In this document: positions 6,543 to 25,025 of the stretch, piece after piece
How the letters are laid out: every line of letters starts with the position of its first letter
Numbering within the stretch: the stretch's first letter is position 1
Assembly (NCBI GenBank): GCA_000002435.2
Contig: CM018789.1
DNA length: 64,000 nt
Strand: one strand, 5' to 3'
From: Giardia intestinalis
Taxonomy: Eukaryota
The notes under the pieces: model-generated
Told to the model about the DNA's origin: nothing
The model's input: the letters and a program-made list of their open reading frames with translations, nothing else
Database searches by the model: none
Made by a program: the position numbers and the translations under genes

Positions 6543-7628
6543 TTAGAAATTGCGGGCCTCAAAGTCCTCTACAATGCGTGTCACGACAGCCAGTGCCGTG
6601 TCACGGTCCTTTGCGCCCCCAAGGAAACCGCTCTTATGAACAAAAGACATGCCCTGGTACCCGCTGACATTCTGAAGCGCTTCGTCCCTCAGCCCGCGCC
6701 AGGCCTCCGGGAGTCCCAGCCTGAATGCAAATGAGCCCTTCTGTGTCGAAACGGTCCTAATACGGTAGCCAGCTTGGTAGTCGTCTGGATGTATGAGAAA
6801 CAGGATAGTGTCACCGCCAGGCCCGTCTTTGCATAGAGATAGATCATGTTCCACCGAATGAATAAATTGTTGATATGGCCCCGGGCTAGAGAGCTCAATG
6901 ATGCGACCACTGGGGTGAAGCTTATGTGCTTGCTCAATAGCTCTAACAAGCTCTCTGCGCGCGGGCAAGTAAGTTATTACTACGGTCTGTATCCACTCCA
7001 TGAAGTCCTGTCCAGCCATCTTGTAAGCTGTTCCAAAACCCTCATCACCGGCAATCTCATAAATGCGAGTGATTCGTGCACTCATAGATGTGGGGTCAGT
7101 CCATCGGCAAATAGGCTCAGACCCATCAGTGTTATAGTGACTCTCTACCCCGTTGTCCACAGCGTCAACCACGCGGATATAGTTGTCATACACATAGTGA
7201 TAGAGAAACTCAAGCTCTGTGGGCCCGTCTAAACGCGGGAAGAGCTGCTTTAGAATACTTCTTCCATAGTGCACATATATTAGTCCTGCAGAACTTAAAC
7301 ATATGTCTTTGTACGCATCTGAAAAGAACACCTGGAAGCCCTTCATGTGATGATCGAAGCACAGCTTCTCGCTATCGTAAACATCCCCCACATCCACTGT
7401 GATGGTAGCAAACTCTAGCTCTTCAGGGTCGCGCGTACGCATGATGCGTGCGTCAATATAATCTGGAAGCTGCTTAATGAACCAAACCGCAAGACATTCG
7501 TCCCAGTGAAATTTACCGTCATGGGTGGCAATAATTTTAAATGGTGTGCCTGAACCCTGCTTAGGGGAGTCAGATGAAACTATGCTTGACGTGGAGGCCA
7601 CGAATTTGAGCTTCGAGGTGTCAATCAT
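6543..7628 (-). CDS. MYG1: MYG1 / UPF0160 family metal-dependent protein hydrolase.
   Basis: Strong match to MYG1 over its full length, including THDGKFHWDECLA, RTRDPEEL, SSAGLIYVHYG, VDAVDNG and LPEAWRGLRDEAL (human MYG1 has LPEPWRGLRDEAL). Confidence 0.85.
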   Translation of the reverse strand: MIDTSKLKFVASTSSIVSSDSPKQGSGTPFKIIATHDGKFHWDECLAVWFIKQLPDYIDARIMRTRDPEELEFATITVDVGDVYDSEKLCFDHHMKGFQVFFSDAYKDICLSSAGLIYVHYGRSILKQLFPRLDGPTELEFLYHYVYDNYIRVVDAVDNGVESHYNTDGSEPICRWTDPTSMSARITRIYEIAGDEGFGTAYKMAGQDFMEWIQTVVITYLPARRELVRAIEQAHKLHPSGRIIELSSPGPYQQFIHSVEHDLSLCKDGPGGDTILFLIHPDDYQAGYRIRTVSTQKGSFAFRLGLPEAWRGLRDEALQNVSGYQGMSFVHKSGFLGGAKDRDTALAVVTRIVEDFEARNF

Positions 7629-7649
7629 TTTTTAAGTCGGTGTATCTTT

Positions 7650-8177
7650 TTACTCTATCATATAAATTCGTCCGTTCTCATGCATGTCTGCCGGTGGCAT
7701 TTGCACAGCCGGATACCCTATGGCTAAAGCACAGAGTACTCTTCTGTTTGGCGAGTTGAGTAACCGTAAAACATCCAGGACAATCCTTTCCGAATCTTCT
7801 CCGTAAACGTTCTTGCGGCCATAGAATTGCTCCCAGGAACAGGCGAGGCCAAAGTCTGAGCATGCTAGCTGGATCATGGCGGCGGCTATCGACATGTCCG
7901 TCGCGATGCTTGTTACCCCGTCATTTTGTATTCCCATAACGACAATCAGCAGCTTTGCATGCTGCATATATTCTGCTTTTTCGCCCTTGGCCTGCGAAAT
8001 CGTCTTTATTATGCGCGGATTAGTCACAAACGCGAACTCCGTGTGTCGCGTGTTATGCCCCGTGGGGATAGCGACGGCAACTTTGCGTAAATATTCGATG
8101 GCCTCTATTGAAACGGATTCCTTCGTGTACTGCTTGATTGCGCGCCTCCGTAAGATAGCGTCACAAATGGGAGGCAT
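7650..8177 (-). CDS. Nitroreductase-family protein, about 175 aa.
   Basis: MPPICDAILRRRAIKQYTKE... has the typical nitroreductase N-terminus and fold length. The track start at 8204 is GTG. The first ATG is at 8177, behind an AT-rich initiator (ggaaatttcaaaggtctATG). Confidence 0.55.
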   Translation of the reverse strand: MPPICDAILRRRAIKQYTKESVSIEAIEYLRKVAVAIPTGHNTRHTEFAFVTNPRIIKTISQAKGEKAEYMQHAKLLIVVMGIQNDGVTSIATDMSIAAAMIQLACSDFGLACSWEQFYGRKNVYGEDSERIVLDVLRLLNSPNRRVLCALAIGYPAVQMPPADMHENGRIYMIE

Positions 8178-8240
8178 AGACCTTTGAAATTTCCAGTTTT
8201 TCACGTCTTTTTACATTTCTCACAAGGACTGAGGATTTGC

Positions 8241-8273
8241 ATCTATATCTATATCTGTATCTGCATCTGCATC
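8241..8273. repeat. Imperfect ATCT/ATCTGC microsatellite in a divergent 5' region.
   Basis: The sequence is atctatatctatatctgtatctgcatctgcatc. Confidence 0.8.
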
Positions 8274-8294
8274 CATAACTTCACCCTTGCCTTT

Positions 8295-11200
8295 ATGGCT
8301 TCCAACATAGATCTGGTACAGGTCGTCTTCCCCACTGCAGTAGTTCATAACGTCTGGAACTGGATAGATACTACCGAGCAGAGGTCAAAGGTCGCTGTCT
8401 TCCTTGTTGACTTCTTGGATCTGCACGACTCCGTCATCTCTGAGCGATGTGACCATCTATTTACCTGTTCGTTCAATAATAAGCGCCCCCAAAAGCTCGG
8501 CCACAGAGCCGCATACGCCGGTGCAGGTGTCTGCGAAGTATCTTCTCTTTTGCCCAGCACGTGGACCAGCAAAAGTCTATTGATAGGCGTGCTTTGGTCG
8601 GCAGGCGAGTTGGCTGACACAACCAAGATCTGCACTGAGATGGCAGAGGTAGTGTTTGCCAAAGGATCTGAGAGGCGCAAATTTCTTATCCAGATACCTG
8701 TATATAGCGAACCACTATCCTTTCTTACGATGTTTACCATAGTCATTGTTCTCTTTCTTTTCTGTATTGCATTAGGGTTTACAATCTTGGCCTGTTTCCT
8801 CATCCAAAGAAGTTACACACAGAAATTTATCGTTCTCACATCACTGAATCGCGCTGCAACCAATTATGCTTACTTTGATTACATTACCAAGCAGATAATC
8901 GCTAAGTGTAAAGACATGCATTCAGTAACCGAGCAGCTTAGGCCATTGGGCCCAAAGCACAAGGAGTTACCGGATTATGCATCCACTAAGGAACCGAAAA
9001 GATCAGCATCCAGGAAGATTGGTATACTTGAGGCTGACCCATACGCTGGAAAGGGCAAAGAACGCAAGCAGGACAACGCTGGCACAGCTCTTACATTGTT
9101 GTCTTCACTTCCTCATATGCCCAACGACGCAGCCGATAACTCAGCGCAACACAGAAGAAAGACACGTCAGCTACGGCATCGGCACAACTTAGGTCCACGA
9201 TTGGCCCCTACTAGACAACTCAGTAGTTTATCCCTTGAAAAGCTGAGAGAACGAGCACTTCCACATTCTAACAATTACGCCGTTGATAACATGACTTCCG
9301 AAGACCAACGTAAGGTCTGCTCATTCCTTCCGAAGCAACCTAATATCATCCAAACTCTTGACGACAATCTTCGCTACTTATCAAGCTATCCCATTGAGCA
9401 CATCTCCAATCTTGACACGAATTATTCATATGAAGTTCATAAATATAACAATGCAAATGTGCTTTTTTCACAAATCGTTATGCCAATCTGGGCCAGCGCC
9501 CTAATATTTTCCAAAACAATGAAGCTACAGGCCATGTCGGACAATAGAAAGGCCGATGTTGCAGCTATCAAAGGGGTCTTCATTTTAGTCGTAGATAAAA
9601 TCTACGATAATAGGTACGTGCTTCCTAGAGAGCTTGTGGGCATCTGTGCCTTCAATAAAAATAGTAAGTTTCACTTCTGCATGATCACTGATTTGAATAA
9701 TTATATGCCTTTGCCGGACTTCCTCCAAGGTGTAAGAGCTAGCGTCAGCAGGCATGGACTTACCTCTGAAAGCTTCTGTTACAATATTAATCTAATCCAC
9801 GAGCTCCTTAGGCTATGCAGACAACGAATGCGAGACAGGAAAGAACCAACTAACATATCGAAAGACGATCAGGCCCACCAAGATTCAAGCACCGACTTGG
9901 AGCCGGACTTGTTGAACACATCTGGCACTAAGCACTTTGTATCACCGGCTTCATCTTTTGTTACGGCACATCCGTCTAAGAGTCCATCCACTGTCTCTAC
10001 TAAAGAATCATCTATTTCTGTCCCTTCCCTCAAAGAACTTAAGAGGATGAACTCTCAAGAGCTGATAGATCTCCTCAGACCAGATGTTTTTACCATCTTG
10101 AATAGGCCTGCCACGAGATTCATTACGATAATCCATGCACTGAATGCTCAGCATATTCGTCGGTCATCGGGTGCAGCCTTTCTGCAGCTAAGGTCTGGCC
10201 AATCCCTGGAAGCCGCGGGAAAGTGTCAGCAACGGCAGACGGATAGCGCTGTAGACGATAAACCTGATAGAACTAGCTCTTTTTCGGGCTCCCGACGAAA
10301 CAAGACTCTACTTTATAAACTTCCGCCTTCCCATCTTCAGAGCAAGCTGCGAAACTCTAAAAACATATCAGAGACATCTGAAGTAACAGAGTCGTCAAAT
10401 GATGATAGATACAGTGACAACTTACCGTTAACTCCTTTGTTTGACGGGTTGCAAGGCACAAGAGACAGCACTGACAGTTCAGACCCTGATAATTGTGACA
10501 TAGTTGCGTGCTTGTGCCACAAGCTAGAGCAAACAGCAGACGTCAAATCTGGCGACACTCAGCTTCGGGCAGTGCCGTTGGACACTGTAGCGACGCAGAG
10601 CGTTTCGCAATGTATTTCACAGAGCATTTCGCGGTCATCCTATACTATGCTCCCACCACTTCCATTGAAGTATAGCACTAGCCCTACACCTAGCTCTACA
10701 TTCACGCCATGCACAGATACCCAAGTCTATATGGAAGCCCACAGCAGCTTTATGTTCGGTAGCTGCTTAGTTGAGGACTGTGCTCTGCAAGAAATTTATG
10801 ACGCTTTGGCATACTTGGGATCATCTGCCAGGGAGCGTATGGCTCGACTTTTAATAAAAGAGATTGCTACACGCAGGCACAGCCTTAAGGACATACAATA
10901 TTTTGACAAGGATTGCATACTAATTAGCATGGATCGTGTATTAACTGATTCTGAGATGGAAGTCGAGATTGACATTAAGCTGGAGCCATTCTCTATGTTG
11001 CTGCGAAACATCAATATGATACCCCGACCAGTTACCGCGAAGACAGACTGTGGGAATACGTCAAGTGTCGACATGTATGTGCGGATTCTGCTTATCTATT
11101 TAGAGCTTATCACTCTCCTGGATTGTACGCAGAGCGATTTGGAGGAACTTTCTATCTTCTTACCTGAGCTCAGAGGCGACGCAGACTACGGGACTGCAAT

Positions 11201-11345
11201 TCAGCGTCTGCTGCTATTGATCAAGGACTTCTCCACAATAGTATCGGGGGAAAGAAACGACACAAGCGGCGGAGCTAGCGGAGCCGGTGCTAGTTTAACG
11301 AAAGCAGACTTGTGGAGAGGATATTTACTCCCTATATTCACATGA
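8295..11345 (+). CDS. Hypothetical protein, about 1017 aa, with an N-terminal hydrophobic segment. The true start is uncertain.
   Basis: A long ORF. The track start at 8184 is TTG and its first 37 codons cover a microsatellite, so I moved the start to the first ATG at 8295. No domain recognised. Confidence 0.45.
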   Translation: MASNIDLVQVVFPTAVVHNVWNWIDTTEQRSKVAVFLVDFLDLHDSVISERCDHLFTCSFNNKRPQKLGHRAAYAGAGVCEVSSLLPSTWTSKSLLIGVLWSAGELADTTKICTEMAEVVFAKGSERRKFLIQIPVYSEPLSFLTMFTIVIVLFLFCIALGFTILACFLIQRSYTQKFIVLTSLNRAATNYAYFDYITKQIIAKCKDMHSVTEQLRPLGPKHKELPDYASTKEPKRSASRKIGILEADPYAGKGKERKQDNAGTALTLLSSLPHMPNDAADNSAQHRRKTRQLRHRHNLGPRLAPTRQLSSLSLEKLRERALPHSNNYAVDNMTSEDQRKVCSFLPKQPNIIQTLDDNLRYLSSYPIEHISNLDTNYSYEVHKYNNANVLFSQIVMPIWASALIFSKTMKLQAMSDNRKADVAAIKGVFILVVDKIYDNRYVLPRELVGICAFNKNSKFHFCMITDLNNYMPLPDFLQGVRASVSRHGLTSESFCYNINLIHELLRLCRQRMRDRKEPTNISKDDQAHQDSSTDLEPDLLNTSGTKHFVSPASSFVTAHPSKSPSTVSTKESSISVPSLKELKRMNSQELIDLLRPDVFTILNRPATRFITIIHALNAQHIRRSSGAAFLQLRSGQSLEAAGKCQQRQTDSAVDDKPDRTSSFSGSRRNKTLLYKLPPSHLQSKLRNSKNISETSEVTESSNDDRYSDNLPLTPLFDGLQGTRDSTDSSDPDNCDIVACLCHKLEQTADVKSGDTQLRAVPLDTVATQSVSQCISQSISRSSYTMLPPLPLKYSTSPTPSSTFTPCTDTQVYMEAHSSFMFGSCLVEDCALQEIYDALAYLGSSARERMARLLIKEIATRRHSLKDIQYFDKDCILISMDRVLTDSEMEVEIDIKLEPFSMLLRNINMIPRPVTAKTDCGNTSSVDMYVRILLIYLELITLLDCTQSDLEELSIFLPELRGDADYGTAIQRLLLLIKDFSTIVSGERNDTSGGASGAGASLTKADLWRGYLLPIFT

Positions 11346-11586: not shown

Positions 11587-12579
11587 TTAACGTTTCGAGC
11601 GCATGATCTGCTGTATCTTTACCCCTATTGTCATTAAGATCTTGGCCTGAACTGACAAGTGCTCACCAATTTGCTTTACTATGGACGGATCTTTAAGAGC
11701 AGGGTATCTGGCCATAAAGTCCTTTTCCACTTTGTCCTTATCCCCGTCTAGAACCTCCTTCAGTAACAGAAAGCGGCTACGCAGTGTATCTCCGTATTGT
11801 GATTCTAGGGATTGGTTAATTTTCTTACATGCAAGCTCGTGCGTTATTGGTATCCCCGTTTGCTCCTCTAATCTGGACCCTATGGAGAAAATTAACAGCG
11901 TTGACTTCTTAGACAGCTCTTTGAGCTTCTTACTATTATCTAGCACTTTATCTGTTTCTTGGTAAATAGATTCCATATCTTTCTTTATCTCTTGTAGCGT
12001 CGTGGTGTGTGCAGCTGCCCGTGCAGCCAGCTGTTCAAACCCGTACACGAGGACGGGGGAGTATCGCGTGCAGTCAGGGCAGCACCGCCTTGCCTCCAGC
12101 CAGAGCTTTTCATCGTTATACGGTGGAACGTTGGGGTCGGCAGAGGGAGGTTGCGGGGCCGGTGGAGCCCCAAAACCGGGTTTGGAGAAGCTTCCGAAGC
12201 CAGAACCAAACCCGCTAAGGCCTGTCGTGAGAGGCGCAGGTGGAGGATCCTTTTTAGAGGCAAGCTCATCGTAAAAGAAGCCGGAGAGAGGGGTCTGGTA
12301 AGATGAGGCGTAGATATTAAGAAGAGAGCTGAAAACGTCGACAAGCCTGCCCTTCTGTGCCATAAGATGAAGAGATTGAGGAATGTCTATCTGCTGTTGA
12401 TGGCTGCACGGCCCCTGCACCTCCCGTTTTGCATTGTCGTTTGTAGGAGCATTAAGGCCAAAAATACCCTTATCTGCAGACAAAGAAACACCGATGGATG
12501 AAGACGTTAGCGGGGCAGACGGTTTTGATACTCCAGAGAAGGCTGCAATAGACATGGGCTGAGCGTTGAAGGACCGCAT
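11587..12579 (-). CDS. FG/GFG-repeat low-complexity protein with a C-terminal predicted coiled coil. It is a candidate FG-nucleoporin of the Nup54/Nup58/Nup62-complex type.
   Basis: LSGFGSGFGSFSKPGFGAPPAPQP repeats are followed by a helical, heptad-like C-terminal half (LQEIKKDMESIYQETDKVLDNSKKLKELSKK...). The ATG at 12579 follows an AT-rich initiator. Confidence 0.55.
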   Translation of the reverse strand: MRSFNAQPMSIAAFSGVSKPSAPLTSSSIGVSLSADKGIFGLNAPTNDNAKREVQGPCSHQQQIDIPQSLHLMAQKGRLVDVFSSLLNIYASSYQTPLSGFFYDELASKKDPPPAPLTTGLSGFGSGFGSFSKPGFGAPPAPQPPSADPNVPPYNDEKLWLEARRCCPDCTRYSPVLVYGFEQLAARAAAHTTTLQEIKKDMESIYQETDKVLDNSKKLKELSKKSTLLIFSIGSRLEEQTGIPITHELACKKINQSLESQYGDTLRSRFLLLKEVLDGDKDKVEKDFMARYPALKDPSIVKQIGEHLSVQAKILMTIGVKIQQIMRSKR

Positions 12580-12607
12580 GACTCAATGAAATTTATTCTT
12601 AGAAACA

Positions 12608-13648
12608 TCAGGTTAAATGGCTAATGCTCAGGTTATCCGATGGCGCTGCGTCCGATTCTGCCCGTTTGTGGACAAGCTTGACACGCAGCTGCTCCAAAAA
12701 CTCCAGCTCTTGGGCAATGAAAGCTCTTAAATCTGCAGTGGTCCGGGAGTCAAGGGTCATCCAAAGAGTGTTGAAATCTCCAAACCCGCTACGCATCGAT
12801 GAGAGGGTTACAAGCTCTCTTGTCGTCCCTTCAACCATATCACCTAGCTGAGTCGCTGCACTGAGTATTGCTTTCCGCTGAGCCGGATTGGAACACCCAT
12901 ACTCCCGCTCTTCAATAATCTTCATGAGTTTAAAAGAAATAGCTCCGTAAAGGGAGGTGCATTGAGATAAAAGAGATGAAATGACATTCGAGTGATTGAC
13001 CAAGTCGTTTAGACGCTCGTCAAAGTTATAAGCAGACGGCGAAGACAATCCATCCTTGAGCTCGCTAAGTTTAGCAGTGTGGGTATTTGCGCGTGTAACC
13101 AGCCCCTCTATCCCGACAACTTCATTTGCATCTGACTTACCTTGAGCAGGCTTTTGTTGGAAGCCAAGGCCGAAACCAAAACCAGATCCTCCACTTTGCC
13201 CCAAAACGCCTCCTCCTCCGAAGCCGCCAAACCCTCCTGGCTTTGTCCCAAACCCTAAAGTGCCCGAGGACCCTAGCGTACCAGATGTGGCTGTGGTAGT
13301 TGGTAACGGCTTGTCTAACTTTAGTCCTGCTGATTTAAAGTTCGCCTTGAAGAGGCAAGTATCTGATTCGGTTGGCAGATAGGCCTTTTCCAGTACTGTG
13401 GCAAACACTCCAGCTCCTATTGTGTTGATAACCCGTGCCATCTCACTTTGCTGAGTCGTGTTTTGGGCTTGCCCGGCTAGGCTTCCAAACTCCATGCTGG
13501 GCTTGGCCCCAAAGCCCCCGCCAAACGTCGTGCCTCCTGCTGAAGTAGACCCAGAACCGAAGGTACCGAAGGTACCAAAGCCCGTGGGCTTGGCCCCAAA
13601 GCTGAAGCCCGACGTGGGAGCGCCTGCAGAAAATGCACCGGCCTGCAT
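12608..13648 (-). CDS. FG/GFG-repeat protein with a C-terminal coiled coil. It is a candidate Nup62/Nsp1-like FG-nucleoporin.
   Basis: The N-terminal half is SGFSFGAKPTGFGTFGTFGSG...GFGGFGGGG...GFGFGLGFQQKP. The C-terminal ~170 aa is helical (LEFLEQLRVKLVHKRAE). The track start is TTG, so I placed the start at the first ATG, 13648, behind a strongly AT-rich initiator. Confidence 0.55.
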   Translation of the reverse strand: MQAGAFSAGAPTSGFSFGAKPTGFGTFGTFGSGSTSAGGTTFGGGFGAKPSMEFGSLAGQAQNTTQQSEMARVINTIGAGVFATVLEKAYLPTESDTCLFKANFKSAGLKLDKPLPTTTATSGTLGSSGTLGFGTKPGGFGGFGGGGVLGQSGGSGFGFGLGFQQKPAQGKSDANEVVGIEGLVTRANTHTAKLSELKDGLSSPSAYNFDERLNDLVNHSNVISSLLSQCTSLYGAISFKLMKIIEEREYGCSNPAQRKAILSAATQLGDMVEGTTRELVTLSSMRSGFGDFNTLWMTLDSRTTADLRAFIAQELEFLEQLRVKLVHKRAESDAAPSDNLSISHLT

Positions 13649-13704: not shown

Positions 13705-14448
13705 ATGAGCAGGAACACCTTCATGAAGAAATTGGCCGACAAGATAAACTACAAGGCCGACGACAATGAGATTTATGAGAAACGATTGGCCTTGGCACAG
13801 TTGCTGGAGGAGTTTGGTTCGCTGCCAATGCTTGTTGTAAGTGGATTTTTGCAAAAGAGTATCGGTGGGATGTTTTTCAATGGAACGGTCGCCTTTGTCG
13901 GCATCGTTATGGCGTGGATCTTGCCGGCCAACGCCTTGTTTGATGCTTTTCTTTTTCTTTCAATATTCACGCTTTTGAAGATCGTGTTTTCGGCGGCTGC
14001 AGTTGATAAAGCGATCGATGACATGCTAAAGAATGTCAAGAATAGAGAGATTATTTACGAAAAACTCCTGAAGAGTATGGCCAAGCACGCAGTCTGTACC
14101 CGTACCGCCTTCGAGACCCTCGGAGCTCAGAACCAACTTATGCTTATGATAGTACTAACCTTTTTCGCCTTCTTTATCCCCCTGCCCGTCTTCGCCACCA
14201 TCGGCCTTCTGCTCGTCGCATTATTCCCCGTTTATAACATAATCTCGAAACAGGAGGCAGAACGATTCCTGGCCTCACCACCGGTCTCTCCACGTGTGCG
14301 AACAAACCACCCTATTCGCGGTGGGGTTCCCGACTCTCTTGTCAATTCCCTGCGTAATGATCAAGCAGCTAATGATGCAGGGTCTCAACTGGTCACATCT
14401 CTCATCCCGCCGCCACCACCACCACCGCCAGCTAAGCTTGGTGAATAA
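13705..14448 (+). CDS. Double-hairpin membrane protein with reticulon/PRA1-like topology. It is paralog A. The C-terminus is poly-Pro.
   Basis: Two ~35-aa hydrophobic hairpins (FFNGTVAFVGIVMAWILPANALFDAFLFLSIF and LMLMIVLTFFAFFIPLPVFATIGLLLVALFPVYNII). The shared motif W(I/S)LP(A/Q)NALF also occurs in the 17185 gene. Confidence 0.6.
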   Translation: MSRNTFMKKLADKINYKADDNEIYEKRLALAQLLEEFGSLPMLVVSGFLQKSIGGMFFNGTVAFVGIVMAWILPANALFDAFLFLSIFTLLKIVFSAAAVDKAIDDMLKNVKNREIIYEKLLKSMAKHAVCTRTAFETLGAQNQLMLMIVLTFFAFFIPLPVFATIGLLLVALFPVYNIISKQEAERFLASPPVSPRVRTNHPIRGGVPDSLVNSLRNDQAANDAGSQLVTSLIPPPPPPPPAKLGE

Positions 14449-14524: not shown

Positions 14525-17143
14525 ATGGACAGCCGCCCAGAAGAACCTGCAGACCCGACGGAGGTTGTGGATAATCCGTTGCCGCCCAGTGTCCCATATG
14601 CCTCTGTGCCTCTTCTTGTCGGGGAGGAGTATGCTGCTCCTCTTAGCTGTGCAATAAACCCAGCAAAAGATCTTATCGCATGCGGAACGGAGACAGGAGT
14701 GCTTCTCATTTATCACTCCTTTTCGATGCAGCTTGTCCGTTCACTGAAAGTGGATGAAAATGCCATCTATAAACTTATTTGGGCCCCAGATAGCCAATCT
14801 ATATTGGCCATCACTATGGGCTCAATCCTATGGGTCTCCCTTGCCAGAGATACTAGCATAACTAGGATGGTGAGCGGAGACTCGATCTACGTTCCCGGGC
14901 AGGCAGCCAAGGGAGGTTCGAACGAATACTTAACTACGCAGGGAACTGGCAGGGAAGATCCACTCAGGGAACCCCAGGGAGACATTATAGAGGCGTGGAG
15001 TCTAGAGGATCAAGAGCTCTCCCTATTGTCATATTCTATTTCAGCATGGTTAATAGAAGTCGATCCTTCTGCTCTCCATTATACAAAGTTCGGTGCTGAA
15101 AATTTCCGCTATAGATCTTGCTTCCGGGTCATAGGAGTAGAGCTACTCATTACCGTAGCACTAAACTACTATGAAGCCACTGGGCTGAAGTCTATAATCT
15201 TTCTTGCAAATAAGTGCAACGATCCATCGTCAGACATGCACTCCTGGGCAGCTATCAACGAAGTCGACTACACAGCTGCCCTTGCCGATGCCTTTGGTGT
15301 GACCAGCATTCCGGCCACATCTGATGTCCTGGCGATCACGGGGCACGTCTTTGTAGTCTCAACTGGTCTTAAGTATGTCATTTTTCGTCGCAATACACTA
15401 TTTACGCCTTACAATCTCGCTGGAAAGGTGGATTATGCATCTCAGTTGCTAATCCAGGGTATAGGGTACACAGGGTCTGTTAATGAGCGGCGATTTGAAG
15501 CCCATAAGCAAACCCTTCATACCAATGAAGAGCCAACAATTGCCGTCACGTTTGTAACAACTAAGCAAACGATGGCGGTTACCAATTTCAGCACTGGTAT
15601 CGATACTAAGAACACAGGTGTCAGTAGAGGGACAAGTGCAGATGCATACGAAGTTCTGAGGGCTTTGATGTCTATTCCTCGGCAAGGAGAGGGCAATCAA
15701 TCTTATGTTGCGGAGTTTCGGTCATTCCACCATTTTTTTCTGTTCATTTATGCATATCACGCGTCTCTTTGTAGAGCAAGCATTACTTATGGACGCTCTC
15801 GCTTCTATCAAGCGCTAACAGACCTCACCTTTCAATCCCTATTCACTTCGGCAGCCAACGCAGCACGGGAAGGAGATGCCTTTACAAAACTAATGACAAT
15901 CCTATCATTTACCTTTTCTGCTGACATATGTGACTTCAGTTCGGTAATATACGATGAGCTAATAGCATCTTTCACTCTTGTAGAGGTCAGCGACGGTTGT
16001 AAGAGTACAGAGAAAACGGCAACAATAGATATGTACATGACAGGTGTGTTCAACTTGGCAGACATATTTAAAGCACTCGGAGATGATGTTCTGAAGCAGG
16101 CACCGGACCTATGTCTTCTTTATCCCAATCCCAGCCTTGCAGAGCTGCTCCTCAACTATCGCATCATCTCCTTCAAAACGAGTATTGACAAGCAGTGGTT
16201 GTATGTGGCCAATCCTCGATTCATACTGACTCTTTCTACCAAGCATAATGTGTGTGAGATATATGAATATGGGGAGAACTTCCTCATCAGCGACCTAGTT
16301 TTTGATATGAGGCCCTTCCCGGCCATTCACGTTGAATTTGGCTATGCTCCCTACGAGCTAGTGATGGCATCAGTAGGGTATTCTCCCCCATACACTCCAG
16401 AGAACATACGGTTACTGTCTGCCAATTGTAGCAAAACTACTATAAAGCAGACAAACGTGCTGTACGCAAATCTGGCCTCGCTGTCACAAGCAAGCAGGGT
16501 CACCAGTAGAAACGCAAGTCGGAGGCTAAGGCTAGTTCCACAGAGGAAGTCAAGGAGAAGGATAGACAAACGGAAACGAGATGCCCCTAGCCCAATCAGC
16601 ACCCTGTCAGAAAACAGGGGTTTCAGAGGAAAGAAGGTGAATCAGCAGAGAACACAGGCTAACCCAGAATCTAGTGCAACAGGTCCATTAACCAGTGATG
16701 ACCTTTCAAGCATAACAACCAGCTCTATGGTCAATCCAAATGAAGCAGGAGCCCAGGAGGAGAACCTAGCTATTACTACTTCAGACATAGACTCACTGCA
16801 GCGCCTCCTTCTGCAAGTAGAGCCACAGCTGGTGTTTTGGGCGTGCAGAGAAGTGCAGGACTTCAACAGCTGTTTCCCAGGCTTTGAAACTGTTAGCACC
16901 AATGTACTATATATAGAACGCGAGGACGAACTAGACATAGATCAGTCAGATCTATATCCCCCGACTGCGCTACCCCGGGCTGTTGACGTGGATTACAGAG
17001 AACTCCAATATCCGACGAAGACCGTGCAGGATGACGAGTTAGATATATTATCACTGGAAGACAGCATCCCAGCATACCATTACTTGCGATCTTATGCAGA
17101 GGTTCATGAGCTTCCCATAAAACTGACCATAGAAATAATATAA
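14525..17143 (+). CDS. Hypothetical protein of 872 aa. The N-terminus looks like a beta-propeller/WD region.
   Basis: A long ORF with an ATG behind an AT-rich initiator (taatttaaaactaaagattgcggcATG). N-terminal LIACGTETGVLLIYHSF...KLIWAPDSQSILAI suggests WD-like blades. Confidence 0.55.
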   Translation: MDSRPEEPADPTEVVDNPLPPSVPYASVPLLVGEEYAAPLSCAINPAKDLIACGTETGVLLIYHSFSMQLVRSLKVDENAIYKLIWAPDSQSILAITMGSILWVSLARDTSITRMVSGDSIYVPGQAAKGGSNEYLTTQGTGREDPLREPQGDIIEAWSLEDQELSLLSYSISAWLIEVDPSALHYTKFGAENFRYRSCFRVIGVELLITVALNYYEATGLKSIIFLANKCNDPSSDMHSWAAINEVDYTAALADAFGVTSIPATSDVLAITGHVFVVSTGLKYVIFRRNTLFTPYNLAGKVDYASQLLIQGIGYTGSVNERRFEAHKQTLHTNEEPTIAVTFVTTKQTMAVTNFSTGIDTKNTGVSRGTSADAYEVLRALMSIPRQGEGNQSYVAEFRSFHHFFLFIYAYHASLCRASITYGRSRFYQALTDLTFQSLFTSAANAAREGDAFTKLMTILSFTFSADICDFSSVIYDELIASFTLVEVSDGCKSTEKTATIDMYMTGVFNLADIFKALGDDVLKQAPDLCLLYPNPSLAELLLNYRIISFKTSIDKQWLYVANPRFILTLSTKHNVCEIYEYGENFLISDLVFDMRPFPAIHVEFGYAPYELVMASVGYSPPYTPENIRLLSANCSKTTIKQTNVLYANLASLSQASRVTSRNASRRLRLVPQRKSRRRIDKRKRDAPSPISTLSENRGFRGKKVNQQRTQANPESSATGPLTSDDLSSITTSSMVNPNEAGAQEENLAITTSDIDSLQRLLLQVEPQLVFWACREVQDFNSCFPGFETVSTNVLYIEREDELDIDQSDLYPPTALPRAVDVDYRELQYPTKTVQDDELDILSLEDSIPAYHYLRSYAEVHELPIKLTIEII

Positions 17144-18147: not shown

Positions 18148-20907
18148 TTAAACCTTGCTACCTCGCTTATCGGGAAGCATCGCATCGACACGCTTGGCAA
18201 GCTCCTCTAGAGATTCTATTAGTTCCTGGCTCATAGCGGGACTGCACATGGCGGCATGCTCGGACCTGGCCCGCCTAGGGCACAGATTGTGATGTTGCAT
18301 CATGTCTTGCTTCCCAATAACGGCCTCAGCATACTTGGTTTGCTCTGATTTATGTCTAGCAAGTTGCCGCACTTGGTGCTGAAGCTTTAATATTCGTTCC
18401 TCATATACGTCGTGTTCTCCCGCTTCATCTTTGCCCTTTAGCAGTCTGTATTTCTTTTCTCCTTGTCTCAACGCTTCGGCGCCATGTGTGCGCAGTGACA
18501 TGAGCTTGGTTACGTAGACAATAGCTTTTCTGAGATTCTGCTTGTATGCGTCGCGCTGCTGCAGTGCTTTATTCAGATCTAACAACAGCTTTGTTTTTTC
18601 TACATTAACATTATCAATCTCAATTGTCGACGAGACCCGAGGGGAAGAGGATCTGATTCTCTGCCGTGACAGCTCCGCGTTAAGCCTTGTGCACTCAGCA
18701 ACTAGCTTCTGGTTGCAATCGTTGAGCTTCTGATGCTTTTGTAGAAGAGCTTTAAGTTCAGTTTCTCGAGCGGCACACTCCGCTTTCAGCTCACTGCACT
18801 GCTGCTTTGTTTCTCGCAAAGCCTCCTCAAATCGGGGCGCTTGAAGCACGCTACTTATGAGCTCGGCAGGCCCCATCTCCGGGCATACGTCCGTTTGAAC
18901 CGCACAGCTGGTGGTGTGGATGGGGCTTTGGAGCGAGTAGCACTGTAGGGATACAGGCTCAGAGTCGTCGCCGCTTGCTTGACATGCAACCGACTTCGTG
19001 ACGAGTGTCACTGTTGATATAAGCATCGTGTGTGTGGCTTTGTTAGAAGTTGCCATAATATGCTGACATGCAGTGGATACACTATTAGTGGCCTTGTCTG
19101 TCTGAGTTGCTGCGCAAGAGGCGGCGTGGATACCCTCCCCTGGTGGACTTGATACGCCAAACCGCGTGAGAGACGCTAGCATGCATTTCTTGCAGTAACC
19201 TTCCTCTATCACAGCAAGCTCTGCCTCCTGCAGTTTAATTTGATCTGTCATGCTGACGATATTATCCTCCAGCAAGCGAATGTGGGCGTTAGCCTCCATC
19301 ATCTTGCCGGTAATGGTCATCTCTGCTTCTGCCATTGTTGATTCTCGAATAGCAGCTAGCTCAGCTCGATGATTTTCAATTGTGGAGGCTAATTCCTTCT
19401 CCACTCGGGAAAGATTGGAGGCTAAATCGTCGCGTTCGGCAGTCATTTCTTGCAAATTCTCCTGCGTAGTTCCTACGGCGTTCCGCAGCTGCTCTATCTC
19501 CTCTGTAAGATTAGAAATGGCTCTTCGCGCCTTTGCTAGTTCTGCTTTGTCATGGTAGCTCGACTGCTCCTCTTCGTTGTGAACCTGCACAAGGGCATCT
19601 ACAAGGATTTTAATTTCATCATTCTTCTGCCGTATCTTCTGATTGAACTGGCTATACAAGTCCTCGGTTACCATTCCGATTCTGTTGCATTGTACCTCAG
19701 CCCTTGCCAGAGCTATGCTTTCAGACAGCAATCTGAAGGTGCTTGAGACTTCATCGATGGAGTGCTCTGGACGCTTATCGAGGAGATGCAGAGGATAATT
19801 CTCTTGAAGAGGGTCCTGGCACGGAAGCATTGGTCGAGAAGGTTGTGCTGCAACAGCCCGACTGACAGATGGTACCAACAGCCCAGGGTCCGTCTGAGTT
19901 TCTGCCACTGCCGATGAACAGAGTTGTTGTTGTTGCTGTAATGATAAGGATAATGATGGTGATGAGTCTGTTAGTTTTAGAGGAGCAGCAGTCCCAGAAA
20001 GTTCAGGTTGATGCGTGCTGCAGAATGTCTGTGCACTAGCACCAAGATAGTCTAGAAGATCATTGCTTTGAGATAGTCTGAGATTGCTGGACCTCAGTGT
20101 GGCACACGTGGCAGACAGCGAAAGTACCTCCTCTTCTAGATGCTCCTTCTCATGCTTAGTCTCAGCTAGCGCATCCTTCAGACTCTTGATTGTCTCCCCT
20201 CGCTTGTTGAGCTGCATAATCGTTTCTTCGAGAAGGCCCTTCGCATCTTGTAGCCGAGCTCTCATAGAAAGAAGGAGCTCAGATGCCCGGCTTCGTGATA
20301 GGCTCTGCAGTTGGTCCGTTATCTGGACTGTGTTATACGTTTGCAAGTTTGGAAAAGCAACCAGTAGGCCGACAATGTGTGCAAGATCGGTGTGCGTTGT
20401 ATCGGAACTGTTGGCTTGAGATTGGAGGTCTAGCTGAAGCTCGCACAGAGTAAGTGCATTGAGTGCAACAGAGGCCATGGTAATAAATGTTTGGACTGGC
20501 GTTTTTCCCGGAATGAAGACTCCGGATATGGCTAATTTGCGGACATGGCTATAGCGCCGCCGAACAGAGGCGCTAAGAGAAGGGTGCTCCTTTAAAAGCG
20601 TCTGCTCTTCCTCCCTTGCTTGAAAAACAACATTATCAATGCTGATCTCCTTGACCATTGGAAATTTGTCTGCATCTCCTAAGAAGATCAGCAGCTCTGA
20701 AAGGCTAGTGTCAAGCCGCAGGTGAGCCAGACTTATGGTACGAATATGCTTATAGTTTGCTAGAAGACCAATATCGCGAATTGAGTGGTTGTTTATCAAT
20801 ACCGATTCAATCCGAGGATTGATGCGCACAGTAGACAAAGCACGAATAGGCTCCTGTTGGACGCGAGGATAATCTAGATTAAGGAAGAGATCAGCCATTG
20901 CGCTCAT
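18148..20907 (-). CDS. Leucine-rich-repeat plus long coiled-coil protein, possibly LRRCC1/centrosomal-like. Hypothetical.
   Basis: LRR-like N-terminal segment (INNHSIRDIGLLANYKHIRTISLAHLRLDTSLSEL, ISIDNVVF) followed by more than 500 aa of heptad-rich helices. The track start at 21027 is GTG, so I moved the start to the ATG at 20907 (MSAMADLF). Confidence 0.5.
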   Translation of the reverse strand: MSAMADLFLNLDYPRVQQEPIRALSTVRINPRIESVLINNHSIRDIGLLANYKHIRTISLAHLRLDTSLSELLIFLGDADKFPMVKEISIDNVVFQAREEEQTLLKEHPSLSASVRRRYSHVRKLAISGVFIPGKTPVQTFITMASVALNALTLCELQLDLQSQANSSDTTHTDLAHIVGLLVAFPNLQTYNTVQITDQLQSLSRSRASELLLSMRARLQDAKGLLEETIMQLNKRGETIKSLKDALAETKHEKEHLEEEVLSLSATCATLRSSNLRLSQSNDLLDYLGASAQTFCSTHQPELSGTAAPLKLTDSSPSLSLSLQQQQQLCSSAVAETQTDPGLLVPSVSRAVAAQPSRPMLPCQDPLQENYPLHLLDKRPEHSIDEVSSTFRLLSESIALARAEVQCNRIGMVTEDLYSQFNQKIRQKNDEIKILVDALVQVHNEEEQSSYHDKAELAKARRAISNLTEEIEQLRNAVGTTQENLQEMTAERDDLASNLSRVEKELASTIENHRAELAAIRESTMAEAEMTITGKMMEANAHIRLLEDNIVSMTDQIKLQEAELAVIEEGYCKKCMLASLTRFGVSSPPGEGIHAASCAATQTDKATNSVSTACQHIMATSNKATHTMLISTVTLVTKSVACQASGDDSEPVSLQCYSLQSPIHTTSCAVQTDVCPEMGPAELISSVLQAPRFEEALRETKQQCSELKAECAARETELKALLQKHQKLNDCNQKLVAECTRLNAELSRQRIRSSSPRVSSTIEIDNVNVEKTKLLLDLNKALQQRDAYKQNLRKAIVYVTKLMSLRTHGAEALRQGEKKYRLLKGKDEAGEHDVYEERILKLQHQVRQLARHKSEQTKYAEAVIGKQDMMQHHNLCPRRARSEHAAMCSPAMSQELIESLEELAKRVDAMLPDKRGSKV

Positions 20908-20978
20908 CCCTACAAATCTGCCGATGCGACGAGCTGTTGGCGGAATTGTTAGATTGAAATGGATTTTGGACAAAAAGC

Positions 20979-23900
20979 ATGAAAGTAAATTTAACACAAA
21001 AGCAAATGGCTTCGGCTGCACTGGCACTCTTGCATGCCCCGGGATTCTCGACCAATGAAGAGGCCATCAAGCTTGTGCAAGAGCAGATTGAAACAATCCA
21101 CTATCAAGTCGACACGGGAACTATCGTTGATCTTTGCCGTGTGGCTCTTCAGACCAAGGCTCCATCTCTCTGCTTACTTCTTTCACGCTTCTACCACGCA
21201 GAATCGAGGATAGGACTCGCTGCCTTTTTCGCCCTTCTTCCTGACCCGGCAGTGCTTTCCCTCACAGAGTCTGACCTCTACAGCCAGGAGATCATGACAT
21301 CTATCGTCGATTTTTATATAGCCTACCGTTCTGGGTTGGTCGCTGGCTCGCTAGCGTCTGTAAGGTATACAGAGGACAGCACAACAGGGAATCTGCGCCA
21401 AGTCAGCCAGCCCCATGGGTCCTCCAGTGTCAATTGTAGTGCACATGGTAGCTCTGTGATCTTTGGCAAGCAGTCTGCCACCGATTTACTTGCGTCCAGG
21501 CAAAGTGTGCATTTTGCCAATAAGAACGCCACACTCTTTGGACTCGATCAAAGTGGGTCTGTGCTTCTAGACGACCAGTCCAGAGCTGGTGCCGCGGGGT
21601 GCTCTTCTTCCACACTTATTGGGAAGAGCGTCGTGGGCCATTCCTCGCAAGCAGATCGCAACCGTACACGCATGTTGACCGACGACGAGTTTGTAAAAAT
21701 GTACATCACTTCTAGGCCGACCACGACGTACCAAGAGCTTTGCACTATCGGTAATCCAGACAGCATTGTTTTTAGTGAGCTTTTGCATGCTGATCTGAAC
21801 AAGATAACCGCGGTTATCGATGCAATCATCGAAGGATCCAAGATGCACTCTAAACTTAGCTTCCTATTGCAGACACAGCACATTGAGCCTACGCGAAAAG
21901 CCGAAAATGTGACTATTGATTTGTCCTATTTGCAGATACCAGGGATGCCTGACCTACAACCAACAGACATTCAAACCAATGCCGACAATGACTTTGTTAT
22001 TCCGCGGCTCTCTGAATTGACCAGCGTCACTGCAACTCCTTTTATCCGGCAACTACCCCTTGACACCTTGCGGACGATGGAGAAGGATGCTCACTTTATA
22101 ACTGATTTTGCCTTTTGCTCTAGTATTTTGTGTGCTGTTGGAGACGAATACAAAAGAAGATGCTTGTTCGAAGACGCAGCCCGCTGCTATGCACAGAACA
22201 GCAATCTTGAGCCATTGGCAACGCTGTTTTTGGATATGATAAAGCTTATATCTGAGCCATCTGGCGCCGCCTCTACTGTTTCTGTTCCTGCACCAGAAAA
22301 CAAGGTGCGCAACATAATCATCTCTCATACCATACAGCTGGCGTTCCAAGTATTTCAGGACTTGCCCGGCGCTATGCTAGACAATCTCATTTCGATGCTG
22401 AAGGAGGAAAGCATCCCAACGCCCTTCGGCTCTGCATTTCTCGGCTCTCTCAAAAACCATATCTTAACAGGAAAATGCCAGAGCTCTCTTTACAAAACCG
22501 TTTTTGCTGAAAAGACTAATACGCGGATCGACCGCAACATCCTCCTCAAAATCCAGCAAAACATCCACAGGTCCTCTTCGGACTCGTTTATAATCACTAC
22601 CGCCTTCTTTATGGCCAGTCTTATGCATGCGCAGCTAGGGCACTCGCTACAATCAACAAAGGACCCCTCTGTCAATCTTTCGACATGGGATAAATTTGGG
22701 CGTATATCTTACGAGGGGATAATCTTCCGGGGTGTAACAATGCCTGGTGACGTGGGTGTCTACAATAAATACTACTCTGTCATGAAGGCTGGAAACCTCA
22801 CTGCCGACATTGATGGGTATGCCTGCGGCGGTATGCTCCTTGGCCTAGGCATCATGACCTCAGAGATGCCTTCAGTTGACGGATTTTCCTCGTACACCCT
22901 TTTGAACGCAGCTGAGCCGATCCTCTCCAATCCTGGAAGGTACATGCTGCTTTTTGATGAGAACGGGATGCTCGCCCCCCGCCCTTCAATGTCGGTTCAG
23001 GGCTATGAGGCCTTTGTTTTCGGATATGCCGTCTCAGCAGGGCTCATGTGCTTGGGGACTAGCAACGAGAAGCTCACTACCCGCCTGAAGTCACTCTTGA
23101 CTTCTCCAGCTGCGTCTCACCCTGACGCAATCTATGGTATATTGTTTGGCTTGGGCCTAATTCACTTAGGTGATCCTCTATTTCTCAAAGCATTCAATTT
23201 CAATGAGTTCTACATTTCCAAGTTTGGAATGGGCATGACAACGTCAAAGACAACGATCACAGTAACGGATGAGCCTCCTAAACTTTATACAGACCTTGCG
23301 GCGACCGTTCTTGAGTTTCTTGTGTCCAAACATGAAAAGGTGCGGACAGGTGCCGCAATGTGCATTGCTCTTTGCTGCTACTGTATTGACGCTCAGGCCA
23401 ACCAAGCCATAGAGTTTCTTCTGGACTTTGAGCCGCGGATTCAGACTTCGCATCTCACGTCGAACAAGCTTTGTGATGGCATTCAGAAAGCGGGGCCAAT
23501 CGCCCTGGGCCTGGCATATGCTCATACTAACTCCCTCGAGGTGGCGACCCAGCTTGTCAGCATAGCTTCTCGCTCCACGGTGGATGAGGTGAGCTATCAC
23601 GGACTGGTAATGATAGCCTTTGTGCTCTCCTCCCAGCGTAGCTTTGCTAATGAGCTCCTCATCCTCGCTGCCAAGTCTCACCGGGTTGCATGCAGACAGG
23701 GTGCAGCTCTGGCATTGGGGTATATTAACGCGGGAACATGGGACCCAGTTGTCGTTAAGGAGTTGCGCGATTTGATGAGCGACCAAGTTGAGGCCGTGCG
23801 CACGCACGCCATTATTGCACAGGCGTTGGTCTTGCAGACGTGCAGCGCCCCGACGCTTCCTGAGAAGATTAAAATTGAGTCGGATGCTCCATTAGGAGAT

Positions 23901-25025
23901 AGGCAGAAGAATGTTATCTATAAACAGGACCATGATCCCACGTTCATTAGAAAGGTCGCGGCTTTAAACAAGCTTCGACATATTCCAGGAAGAGTCCAAG
24001 ACCGATCCCGCGAATTTGCTGCTTTTGAAACCTCACTGGCTGCCAAGCCAGAGAATATATCTTCTCAAGAAAACGCTGATTCAGAACAGGACACGGCAAA
24101 GAAGGAAAAGCGATCGGAGAAACACACCAACGAGGCAAACGAGGCTGCAAGGAAGCTCTTCAACGACAAAACTAATACAGATGCTGGCATAGTGCAGAGT
24201 CGAGAGTTTGCCAAGAAGGTTGAGGAGCAGTTGGAGAGAGGCTTCACCCTTGAAGATTACTGCTCCCAGTTTCGCGCTGACCTTCTGGGATCTTTCACAG
24301 AGCATAACTTTATCGATCTGTTTGCAACGGATCTTGGTCTACGCGCGTGCGCGATTGCACTGGGCCTCTTGAACTGTGGGGGAATGAATTCGAGCTTCTC
24401 CATTCTTACCCCAGCAGGCCTCCCGAAGACCACTGCCACAATAGGAGCGCTCTTATTTGCAGAATCACACATGTGGCATCCGTTTTCTCCCTGTATTGCC
24501 ATGTGCCTCGCACGCGACATCTGTATAACGGTCACTCCATCCGTCGATGAAGCAGGACAGCTGACCATGGAGATAGCCGAGGGCATTCTCTTGATAGATA
24601 AGGCGCACGACTATCCTTATCCGGACCTGTCAGTGGAGAGGACAGCCACAATGTGGGACAAGTACGTTAAAAATGCCAAGCTTTCTCTGGGTACAGCGAG
24701 ACGACATGTCAGCGAGATTGACACAGAAGGTACAGAGATATCGAACTTCTCTTATGTGAGGAAGGCGAGTCGAACGGCTACTCAGCGCTTTTTGCACGAG
24801 GCTATGAATGCAAATCTAGGGGATGTCGTGGTAGACGATACTGTTAAAAAAGAGAGTGAGCAGAAGCTTCACTCTAACGAAGGAGCTTACAGCATCTTGC
24901 AAACGCCGTGTCGTATACTTAAGAGACAGGTGGAGCATGTGATAATCCCAGAGAATAGCGATTTAGTACCCATATCCTCAATGTCCCAAGGAATCGTTGT
25001 TATGTGTGAAATCGTCGATCTCTGA
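20979..25025 (+). CDS. PC-repeat (proteasome/cyclosome repeat) giant protein of 1348 aa. It is a candidate 26S proteasome regulatory subunit (Rpn2/Rpn1-like) or, alternatively, APC1-like.
   Basis: Central run of about eight PC-like repeats: YACGGMLLGLGIMT, FVFGYAVSAGLMCLGT, AIYGILFGLGLIHLGD, TGAAMCIALCCYCI, IALGLAYAHTN, VACRQGAALALGYINAGT, HAIIAQALVLQT. The ATG at 20979 follows an AT-rich initiator. Confidence 0.5.
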   Translation: MKVNLTQKQMASAALALLHAPGFSTNEEAIKLVQEQIETIHYQVDTGTIVDLCRVALQTKAPSLCLLLSRFYHAESRIGLAAFFALLPDPAVLSLTESDLYSQEIMTSIVDFYIAYRSGLVAGSLASVRYTEDSTTGNLRQVSQPHGSSSVNCSAHGSSVIFGKQSATDLLASRQSVHFANKNATLFGLDQSGSVLLDDQSRAGAAGCSSSTLIGKSVVGHSSQADRNRTRMLTDDEFVKMYITSRPTTTYQELCTIGNPDSIVFSELLHADLNKITAVIDAIIEGSKMHSKLSFLLQTQHIEPTRKAENVTIDLSYLQIPGMPDLQPTDIQTNADNDFVIPRLSELTSVTATPFIRQLPLDTLRTMEKDAHFITDFAFCSSILCAVGDEYKRRCLFEDAARCYAQNSNLEPLATLFLDMIKLISEPSGAASTVSVPAPENKVRNIIISHTIQLAFQVFQDLPGAMLDNLISMLKEESIPTPFGSAFLGSLKNHILTGKCQSSLYKTVFAEKTNTRIDRNILLKIQQNIHRSSSDSFIITTAFFMASLMHAQLGHSLQSTKDPSVNLSTWDKFGRISYEGIIFRGVTMPGDVGVYNKYYSVMKAGNLTADIDGYACGGMLLGLGIMTSEMPSVDGFSSYTLLNAAEPILSNPGRYMLLFDENGMLAPRPSMSVQGYEAFVFGYAVSAGLMCLGTSNEKLTTRLKSLLTSPAASHPDAIYGILFGLGLIHLGDPLFLKAFNFNEFYISKFGMGMTTSKTTITVTDEPPKLYTDLAATVLEFLVSKHEKVRTGAAMCIALCCYCIDAQANQAIEFLLDFEPRIQTSHLTSNKLCDGIQKAGPIALGLAYAHTNSLEVATQLVSIASRSTVDEVSYHGLVMIAFVLSSQRSFANELLILAAKSHRVACRQGAALALGYINAGTWDPVVVKELRDLMSDQVEAVRTHAIIAQALVLQTCSAPTLPEKIKIESDAPLGDRQKNVIYKQDHDPTFIRKVAALNKLRHIPGRVQDRSREFAAFETSLAAKPENISSQENADSEQDTAKKEKRSEKHTNEANEAARKLFNDKTNTDAGIVQSREFAKKVEEQLERGFTLEDYCSQFRADLLGSFTEHNFIDLFATDLGLRACAIALGLLNCGGMNSSFSILTPAGLPKTTATIGALLFAESHMWHPFSPCIAMCLARDICITVTPSVDEAGQLTMEIAEGILLIDKAHDYPYPDLSVERTATMWDKYVKNAKLSLGTARRHVSEIDTEGTEISNFSYVRKASRTATQRFLHEAMNANLGDVVVDDTVKKESEQKLHSNEGAYSILQTPCRILKRQVEHVIIPENSDLVPISSMSQGIVVMCEIVDL

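Follow-up and report, generated by a model that had tools for sequence, protein, structure and literature searches.

The nuclear pore of Giardia is among the least defined in eukaryotes. A stretch of Giardia intestinalis (G. duodenalis, assemblage A, WB) DNA of 64,000 nucleotides (assembly GCA_000002435.2, contig CM018789.1), referred to here as the window, contains two adjacent genes that bear on the central channel of this pore. The downstream gene, gene A, encodes the already annotated Nup54, and the upstream gene, gene B, encodes a hypothetical protein rich in phenylalanine–glycine (FG) motifs that is most likely a tandem paralogue of Nup54, as judged by profile comparison. Nup54 in vertebrates, or Nup57 in fungi (PF13874), is a subunit of the Nup62–Nup58–Nup54 channel heterotrimer. 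An earlier description of the locus, the sequence-only reading, had identified two adjacent same-strand genes, and both open reading frames are indeed present at the following positions:

11587–12579, minus strand: gene A coding sequence, 330 amino acids plus stop codon (XP_001709163.1, UniProt A8B780, "Nucleoporin complex subunit 54")
12580–12607, minus strand: spacer of 28 nucleotides from the stop codon of B to the start codon of A
12608–13648, minus strand: gene B coding sequence, 346 amino acids from the ATG plus stop codon (GL50803_0014400, UniProt D3KGH1, XP_037901641.1, "hypothetical protein")

The same reading had proposed both products as channel nucleoporins (Nups). For A this is correct and was known already, and for B it is plausible from the FG-nucleoporin architecture of the protein and its linkage to Nup54.

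Organization and Conservation of the Gene Pair

Genes B and A lie head to tail, and because only 28 nucleotides separate them, part of the 3′ end of B must also serve as the promoter of A. The product of gene B is 100% identical to GL50803_0014400. Its start at the ATG at position 13648 is supported by the orthologues, all of which begin MQ(A/T)G. The order B-then-A is kept in G. muris, where the spacer is 7 nucleotides and the gene with the Nup54 domain lies directly downstream, in assemblage E, where the pair bears the successive locus tags GLP15_417 and GLP15_418, and in a further Giardia lineage with a spacer of 34 nucleotides. Two other nearby genes are common to the G. muris neighborhood and the window, in a rearranged order.

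Neumann et al. (2010, PMC2951903) included Giardia sequences in their alignments of seven nucleoporin families (Nup107, Nup155, Nup35, Nup54, Nup98, Rae1, and Sec13), and no Giardia sequence is found in their Nup62, Nup58, or Nup93 alignments. A literature search returned no naming of a Giardia Nup62 or Nup58, no mention of GL50803_14400, and no localized channel nucleoporin of Giardia. The late protein accession of B suggests that the 2007 gene set did not contain the gene, and it was probably missing from the genes screened for the 2010 study.

Gene A, the Annotated Nup54

Three segments of the gene A product are considered here:

11905–12126, minus strand: Pfam Nup54 domain match, residues 152–225, containing W.EA..PD....P.LVYGF.QL..R and the start of the first coiled-coil segment (CCS1)
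12166–12219, minus strand: FG patch, residues 121–138, LSGFGSGFGSFSKPGFGA; an insertion that is not conserved in G. muris
12262–12396, minus strand: conserved segment, residues 62–106, ending in GFFYDE; conserved with G. muris

A comparison with the Pfam Nup54 family (PF13874), which the earlier reading had put forward as a check, confirmed the assignment: A scores 40.9 bits against a cut-off of 30.5, which places it in the Nup54/Nup57 family by the Pfam threshold. NCBI and UniProt already name the protein accordingly, and Neumann et al. (2010, PMC2951903) have exactly this sequence in their supplementary alignment, as the entry nup54_giardia (gi|159117887). Gene A is predicted with confidence to encode Nup54, a channel nucleoporin homologue, and is already known, being annotated and reported in 2010.

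For more sensitive comparisons, a Nup54/57 profile was made from 24 non-Giardia, non-metazoan family segments of the same supplementary alignment (PMC2951903). Against this profile A scored 36–47 bits in single-sequence HMMER and reached a probability of 97–98% overall in hhalign. As the positive control with the 201-column version of the profile, A gave a probability of 98%, an E-value of about 1e-13, and a score of 87.6–90.5 over 97–127 columns, and with its FG patch removed it aligned over 108–127 columns (probability 98%). The segment of A that ends in GFFYDE is the Giardia version of the 'F..YFYN' motif of Nup54/57. The corresponding segment of the G. muris protein, which ends in GGYFYD, runs directly into the W.EA..NPDP motif, and the G. 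muris protein aligns contiguously with positions 5–110 of the family profile.

The FG content of A is low. Four FG motifs are present, where 0.93 were expected from shuffled sequences (P = 0.007), and three of the four fall within a single 17-residue patch. The orthologue in G. muris, a protein of 279 amino acids (6992–7831 of the compared G. muris sequence), lacks this patch through a deletion and has a single FG motif. The FG enrichment of A is therefore marginal in G. duodenalis and absent in G. muris. In G. muris, the annotated channel nucleoporin is essentially FG-free, with the FG load carried on the orthologue of B. In Giardia, the FG-poor A would probably be mainly structural.

The FG Domain of Gene B

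The N-terminal half of the gene B product consists of two FG patches separated by a conserved segment:

13472–13648, minus strand: FG patch 1, residues 1–59; 7 FG motifs, including FSFGAKP, GFGTFGTFG, and FGGGFGAKP; 5% charged residues
13556–13580, minus strand: 9-bp tandem repeat, 2.8 copies, 93% matching (Tandem Repeats Finder); encodes the TFGTFG stretch
13304–13471, minus strand: conserved non-FG segment, residues 60–115; helix predicted at 64–89 by AlphaFold2 (AF2) with a predicted local distance difference test score (pLDDT) below 30
13139–13303, minus strand: FG patch 2, residues 116–170; 5 FG motifs (LGFGTKPGGFGGFGGGG...GFGFGLGF); 3.6% charged residues

Residues 1–170 contain 12 FG motifs compared with 4.35 expected from shuffles (P = 1e-4), all in the two patches, where charged residues make up 4–5%. 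Patch 1 by itself has 7 FG motifs against 2.6 expected (P = 0.001) and is FG-rich yet unalignable in G. muris. Patch 2 occupies, in the family alignment, the site of the canonical Nup54 W..A..NPD segment. The non-FG segment between the patches, which the sequence-only reading did not mention, is highly conserved among Giardia assemblages. Among the 56 open reading frames of at least 100 amino acids in the window, B ranks first in FG density (3.8 per 100 residues) and A second (1.2).

The four repeat motifs quoted in the earlier reading were all found, GFGSGFGSF in A (residues 123–131) and FGTFGTFGSG, GFGGFGGGG, and GFGFGLGF in B. Its account of an N-terminal half made of low-complexity Gly/Phe repeats holds for B with its 12 FG motifs in two patches, but was overstated for A with its four motifs and one short patch that G. 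muris lacks.

FG domains usually keep their FG richness while the sequence itself cannot be aligned. The G. muris orthologue of B is 28% identical to B and carries 7 FG motifs against 1.5 expected (P < 5e-5) in an FG region that cannot be aligned. Both proteins are thus enriched in FG motifs, and in composition rather than in sequence the region is conserved; in B it is of low complexity and low charge. The orthologues of B differ by insertions and deletions at the 9-bp repeat, including a 10-residue deletion in the assemblage E orthologue; since this repeat encodes TFGTFG and the length changes fall at the same spot, FG motifs may be gained and lost by replication slippage, as the comparison suggests. 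The RGG/FG-type RNA-binding protein, a rival that the earlier reading had named for the GFG repeats, was discarded for lack of support, as there is no RGG motif and no match to an RNA-binding domain.

The Helical Domain of Gene B

The FG domain of B is followed by a predicted helical tail of about 170 residues:

12611–13138, minus strand: C-terminal alpha-helical domain, residues 171–346; three or four long helices with lengths that fit CCS1–CCS3 (AF2)

The long helices are predicted at residues 180–200, 207–249, 255–287, and 301–334. In the earlier reading the C-terminal half of each protein was a predicted alpha-helical coiled coil. The long helices are borne out for B by the structure prediction, while the coiled coil itself we infer for both A and B; in a crude test of heptad contrast, z was 2.2 with B and 0.7 with A. 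When B alone and the B family profile were compared with the sequences of solved structures, only coronavirus spike heptad repeats were matched (E ≥ 0.07), and these matches are coiled-coil noise.

Probable Relation of Gene B to Nup54/57

The similarity of B to Nup54/57 centers on two sites:

13040–13123, minus strand: junction at the start of CCS1, residues 176–203, EVVGIEGLVTRANTHTAKLSELKDGLSS; counterpart of the Nup54/57 'V.GF..L..R...Q'
13337–13390, minus strand: candidate match to the N-terminal motif, residues 87–104, EKAYLPTESDTCLFKANF; resembles the Nup54/57 [AW][YW][DN]-P..P.C-F[KR]..YN

When A was compared directly with B by BLASTP, a motif of 27 residues common to both emerged where the helical domain starts (12 of 27 residues identical, E 8e-4); it reads VYGFEQLAARAAAHTTTLQEIKKDMES in A and VVGIEGLVTRANTHTAKLSELKDGLSS in B. 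With the G. muris sequences added, hhalign aligned A and B over 60 columns (E 4e-5). In the Nup54/57 alignment of Neumann et al. (2010, PMC2951903), this shared motif is the family 'V.GF..L..R...Q' junction, and upstream of it the family has the motif [AW][YW][DN]-P..P.C-F[KR].[YF].YN. Every orthologue of B takes the same register at the junction against the independent family profile. Of the longer signature W..A...NPD....P....GF..L..R...Q, B has the second half only, VVGIEGLVTRA (VDVKGLLGRAEAQ in G. muris); it lacks the W..A..NPD half, in place of which stands FG patch 2. The candidate upstream match was detected with hhalign of the mid-region of B against a motif profile (score 14.6, E 0.005), a score that none of 400 permutations reached. 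This N-terminal motif is degraded in the B protein of G. muris.

Full-length B aligned with the 201-column Nup54/57 profile in hhalign with a probability of 84.8% (E 6.5e-6, score 43.7, 73 columns), and the C-terminal domain alone gave 85.5% (E 5.7e-6, score 40.4, 107 columns). Removal of FG patch 2 raised the probability to 93% (E 3.4e-7, score 49.4, 105 columns) with both motifs collinear. When the profile was lengthened from 138 to 201 columns, the alignment of B grew in register and the score rose from 34.7 to 43.7. Reversed-profile controls scored 14–18, and in 600 block permutations of the B alignment the score never came up to 40.4, the maxima being 25.3, 26.0, and 35.3 for blocks of 7, 14, and 21 columns. 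The profile–profile similarity of B to Nup54/57 extends over the alpha/beta-domain junction and CCS1–CCS2, in register and specific to this family, as measured with a hand-typed profile for which coiled-coil noise reaches about 30.

The locus is therefore probably a tandem pair of Nup54/Nup57-family genes, in which A would be the canonical, FG-poor Nup54 and B a divergent, FG-rich, and unannotated paralogue. Since it is Nup54/57 that B resembles in the profile comparisons, the pair is best read as two Nup54-type paralogues and not as a Nup54 next to a Nup62 or Nup58. The novelty is confined to B, a new divergent member of a known family, and the surprise is limited because gene A, half of the finding, was already annotated.

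Several results weigh against this interpretation. B, its C-terminal half, and four of its orthologues including that of G. muris have no Pfam match at E ≤ 10 and do not attain the PF13874 gathering score. In single-sequence HMMER, B scores 0–5 bits against the Nup54/57 profile, which is not significant although the register is always the same, and is no better than the 5–8 bits that A scores against Nup62. The HMMER sub-profile of CCS1 ranks B third, behind a random open reading frame of the window, and that of the N-terminal motif does not place B above such random frames. The mid-regions of A and B, when compared directly, have no similarity (E 0.2). The Nup54/57 profile was typed by hand from candidate sequences of 2010 and may hold errors or false members, and because it scores 29.9 against its own reverse, coiled-coil noise is heavier than the nominal E-values imply. 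The AF2 models of B are of low confidence (pLDDT 35 and 54), and the structural similarity to channel nucleoporins that the earlier reading anticipated did not emerge from fold searches, which returned only non-specific, generic helical bundles. A third channel subunit did not turn up in this analysis, and Neumann et al. (2010, PMC2951903) have no Giardia candidate for Nic96/Nup93.

Alternative Explanations for Gene B

The other two channel families, Nup62/Nsp1 (PF05064) and Nup58/Nup49 (PF15967), share the layout of B, in which a helical domain of about 170–200 residues comes after an FG region, and the FSFGAKP motif of B resembles the repeats of Nsp1. An unrecognizably diverged orthologue of one of these families is an unlikely identity for B; its likeness to Nup54 would then stem from an ancient common origin of the three channel coiled-coil proteins or from convergence. 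The FG region and helical tail of B fit all three families, Giardia proteins are often extremely divergent, and the Nup62 and Nup58 slots are empty in that Neumann et al. (2010) list no Giardia candidate for either. The profiles of these families, however, were matched by B at noise level (E 0.01–0.27, compared with about 1e-5 to 3e-7 for Nup54/57). With hhalign, B scored 13.6–15 against a 29-species Nup62/Nsp1 CCS1 profile (probability < 1%, E 0.07–0.13), 18–21 against a Nup49/58 CCS1 profile of 16 species (E 0.01–0.025), and 12–13 against a Nup58 CCS2–3 profile of 16 species (E 0.2–0.27). The Nsp1_C/Nup62 similarity looked for in the earlier reading is likewise missing from Pfam, in which B has no PF05064 match at E ≤ 10. 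B also lacks the Nup58/49 'F..LP' signature at the start of CCS1 and the 'W...L....F..A..V..WD' signature of Nsp1_C, and the N-terminal motif that it resembles belongs, in this alignment set, to Nup54/57. As an orthologue of Nup62 or Nup58, B is thus unsupported by Pfam or by the hhalign profiles.

Chain I of PDB entry 9sob, which has 237 residues and is named NUP58, matches human NUP58 weakly (E 2e-9), and the entry may be a protist pore structure.

In an exhaustive HMMER search of 1.84 billion representatives, the profile of the B C-terminal domain matched proteins of Giardia alone, apart from a single spurious hit, a bacterial Calx-beta protein. Together with the insignificant single-sequence HMMER scores and the score of about 30 that a reversed family profile can reach, this is what would be expected if B were a lineage-specific FG nucleoporin unrelated to Nup54, an analogue recruited beside it, with the profile likeness a coiled-coil artefact. 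We consider this origin quite unlikely, as the hhalign scores of 40–49 for B exceed those of all 600 permutations and all cross-family controls, two separate Nup54/57 motifs match in the right order, and the alignment grew in register with the longer profile.

It is improbable that B is a non-pore protein, such as a Gly/Phe-rich component of the cytoskeleton or of RNA granules or a vesicle-tethering or SNARE-like protein, whose gene just happens to be next to Nup54, although syntaxin Habc and SNARE-type bundles rank first in the fold searches of its low-confidence model, and adjacency alone is weak evidence because Giardia genes are tightly packed.

A Proposed Origin and Role of the Pair

If the pair consists of two Nup54-type paralogues, the simplest explanation for B would be a tandem duplication before the split of G. 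muris and G. duodenalis, from which B emerged as the fast-evolving copy. B would have kept both flanking signatures of the alpha/beta-domain region of Nup54 together with the CCS1–CCS2 helices, while its W..A..NPD segment would have been replaced by an FG patch, so that B now bears most of the FG motifs of the pair. The helical tails of A and B may join one coiled-coil bundle of channel nucleoporins, perhaps along with a third chain, and their helix lengths would be compatible with a three-chain arrangement. Such a bundle could anchor the pair to the inner ring of the pore. If B resides in the pore, its short, uncharged FG patches would face and project into the central channel, where they may bind transport receptors and add to the permeability barrier.

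Compared with the Nup54/Nup57 family, B shares the 'V.G...L..R' junction, in-register CCS1–CCS2 helices (hhalign 85–93%), and FG motifs in the N-terminal part, and it has a candidate counterpart of the '[AW]Y.P...C.F+..' motif. It differs in that it has an FG patch instead of the W..A..NPD..P segment, has no Pfam match, and occurs in Giardia only. A differs in being FG-poor, with 4 FG motifs in the G. duodenalis protein and a single one in that of G. muris, and both proteins are short (330–346 amino acids).

The closest characterized protist analogue is found in Trypanosoma brucei, in which the short FG and coiled-coil nucleoporins TbNup62, TbNup53a, and TbNup53b co-purify with each other and also with TbNup96, the homologue of Nic96 (Obado et al. 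2016, PMC4758718). Small FG/coiled-coil proteins thus make the channel module outside opisthokonts as well. The two systems also differ in that an Nsp1_C-type Nup62 is recognizable in T. brucei, whereas none is reported in Giardia, where the pair is apparently made of two tandem Nup54-type genes.

B, the more FG-rich member of the pair, is a concrete and taggable candidate for a second channel FG nucleoporin of Giardia. Should B indeed be a paralogue of Nup54 and its partner, a highly reduced eukaryote would have rebuilt its transport channel by duplicating one subunit, which bears on how conserved the Nup62–Nup58–Nup54 trimer really is. A further step, which we put forward tentatively and regard as doubtful, is that Giardia lost canonical Nup62 and Nup58 altogether and rebuilt the channel module from tandem-duplicated Nup54 paralogues, with A providing structure and B the FG barrier. 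In that case the minimal Giardia pore would contain a homo-family coiled-coil bundle and not the conserved three-family heterotrimer.

Other Genes in the Window

The remaining neighbors in the window are unrelated to the pair and include genes for ankyrin, SNAP, MYG1, and phosphoribosyl pyrophosphate (PRPP) synthetase as well as proteins of unknown function. The following open reading frames were noted:

13705–14448: gene divergent from B, 247 amino acids; stretches that are hydrophobic and membrane-like, and nine consecutive prolines at the C terminus
14525–17143: open reading frame of 872 amino acids
8184–11345: mechanically called open reading frame
18148–21027, minus strand, and 20979–25025, plus strand: long divergent open reading frames

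The gene divergent from B has no match in a Pfam search, and in another Giardia lineage a 253-amino acid gene lies at the same position. The 872-amino acid frame gave a weak beta-propeller hint only (PF23414, E 0.0015, far below the cut-off). The mechanical call at 8184–11345, whose product has no match in a Pfam search, opens in translation with ...ICIYIYICICICIH (8184–8300), which points to a short simple repeat of the TA/TG type immediately before the start codon that is probably the true one (MASNIDL, at about 8298). The two long divergent frames would overlap at their 5′ ends by about 49 nucleotides with the mechanically called starts, GTG and ATG, but an error in one of these two start codons is more probable.

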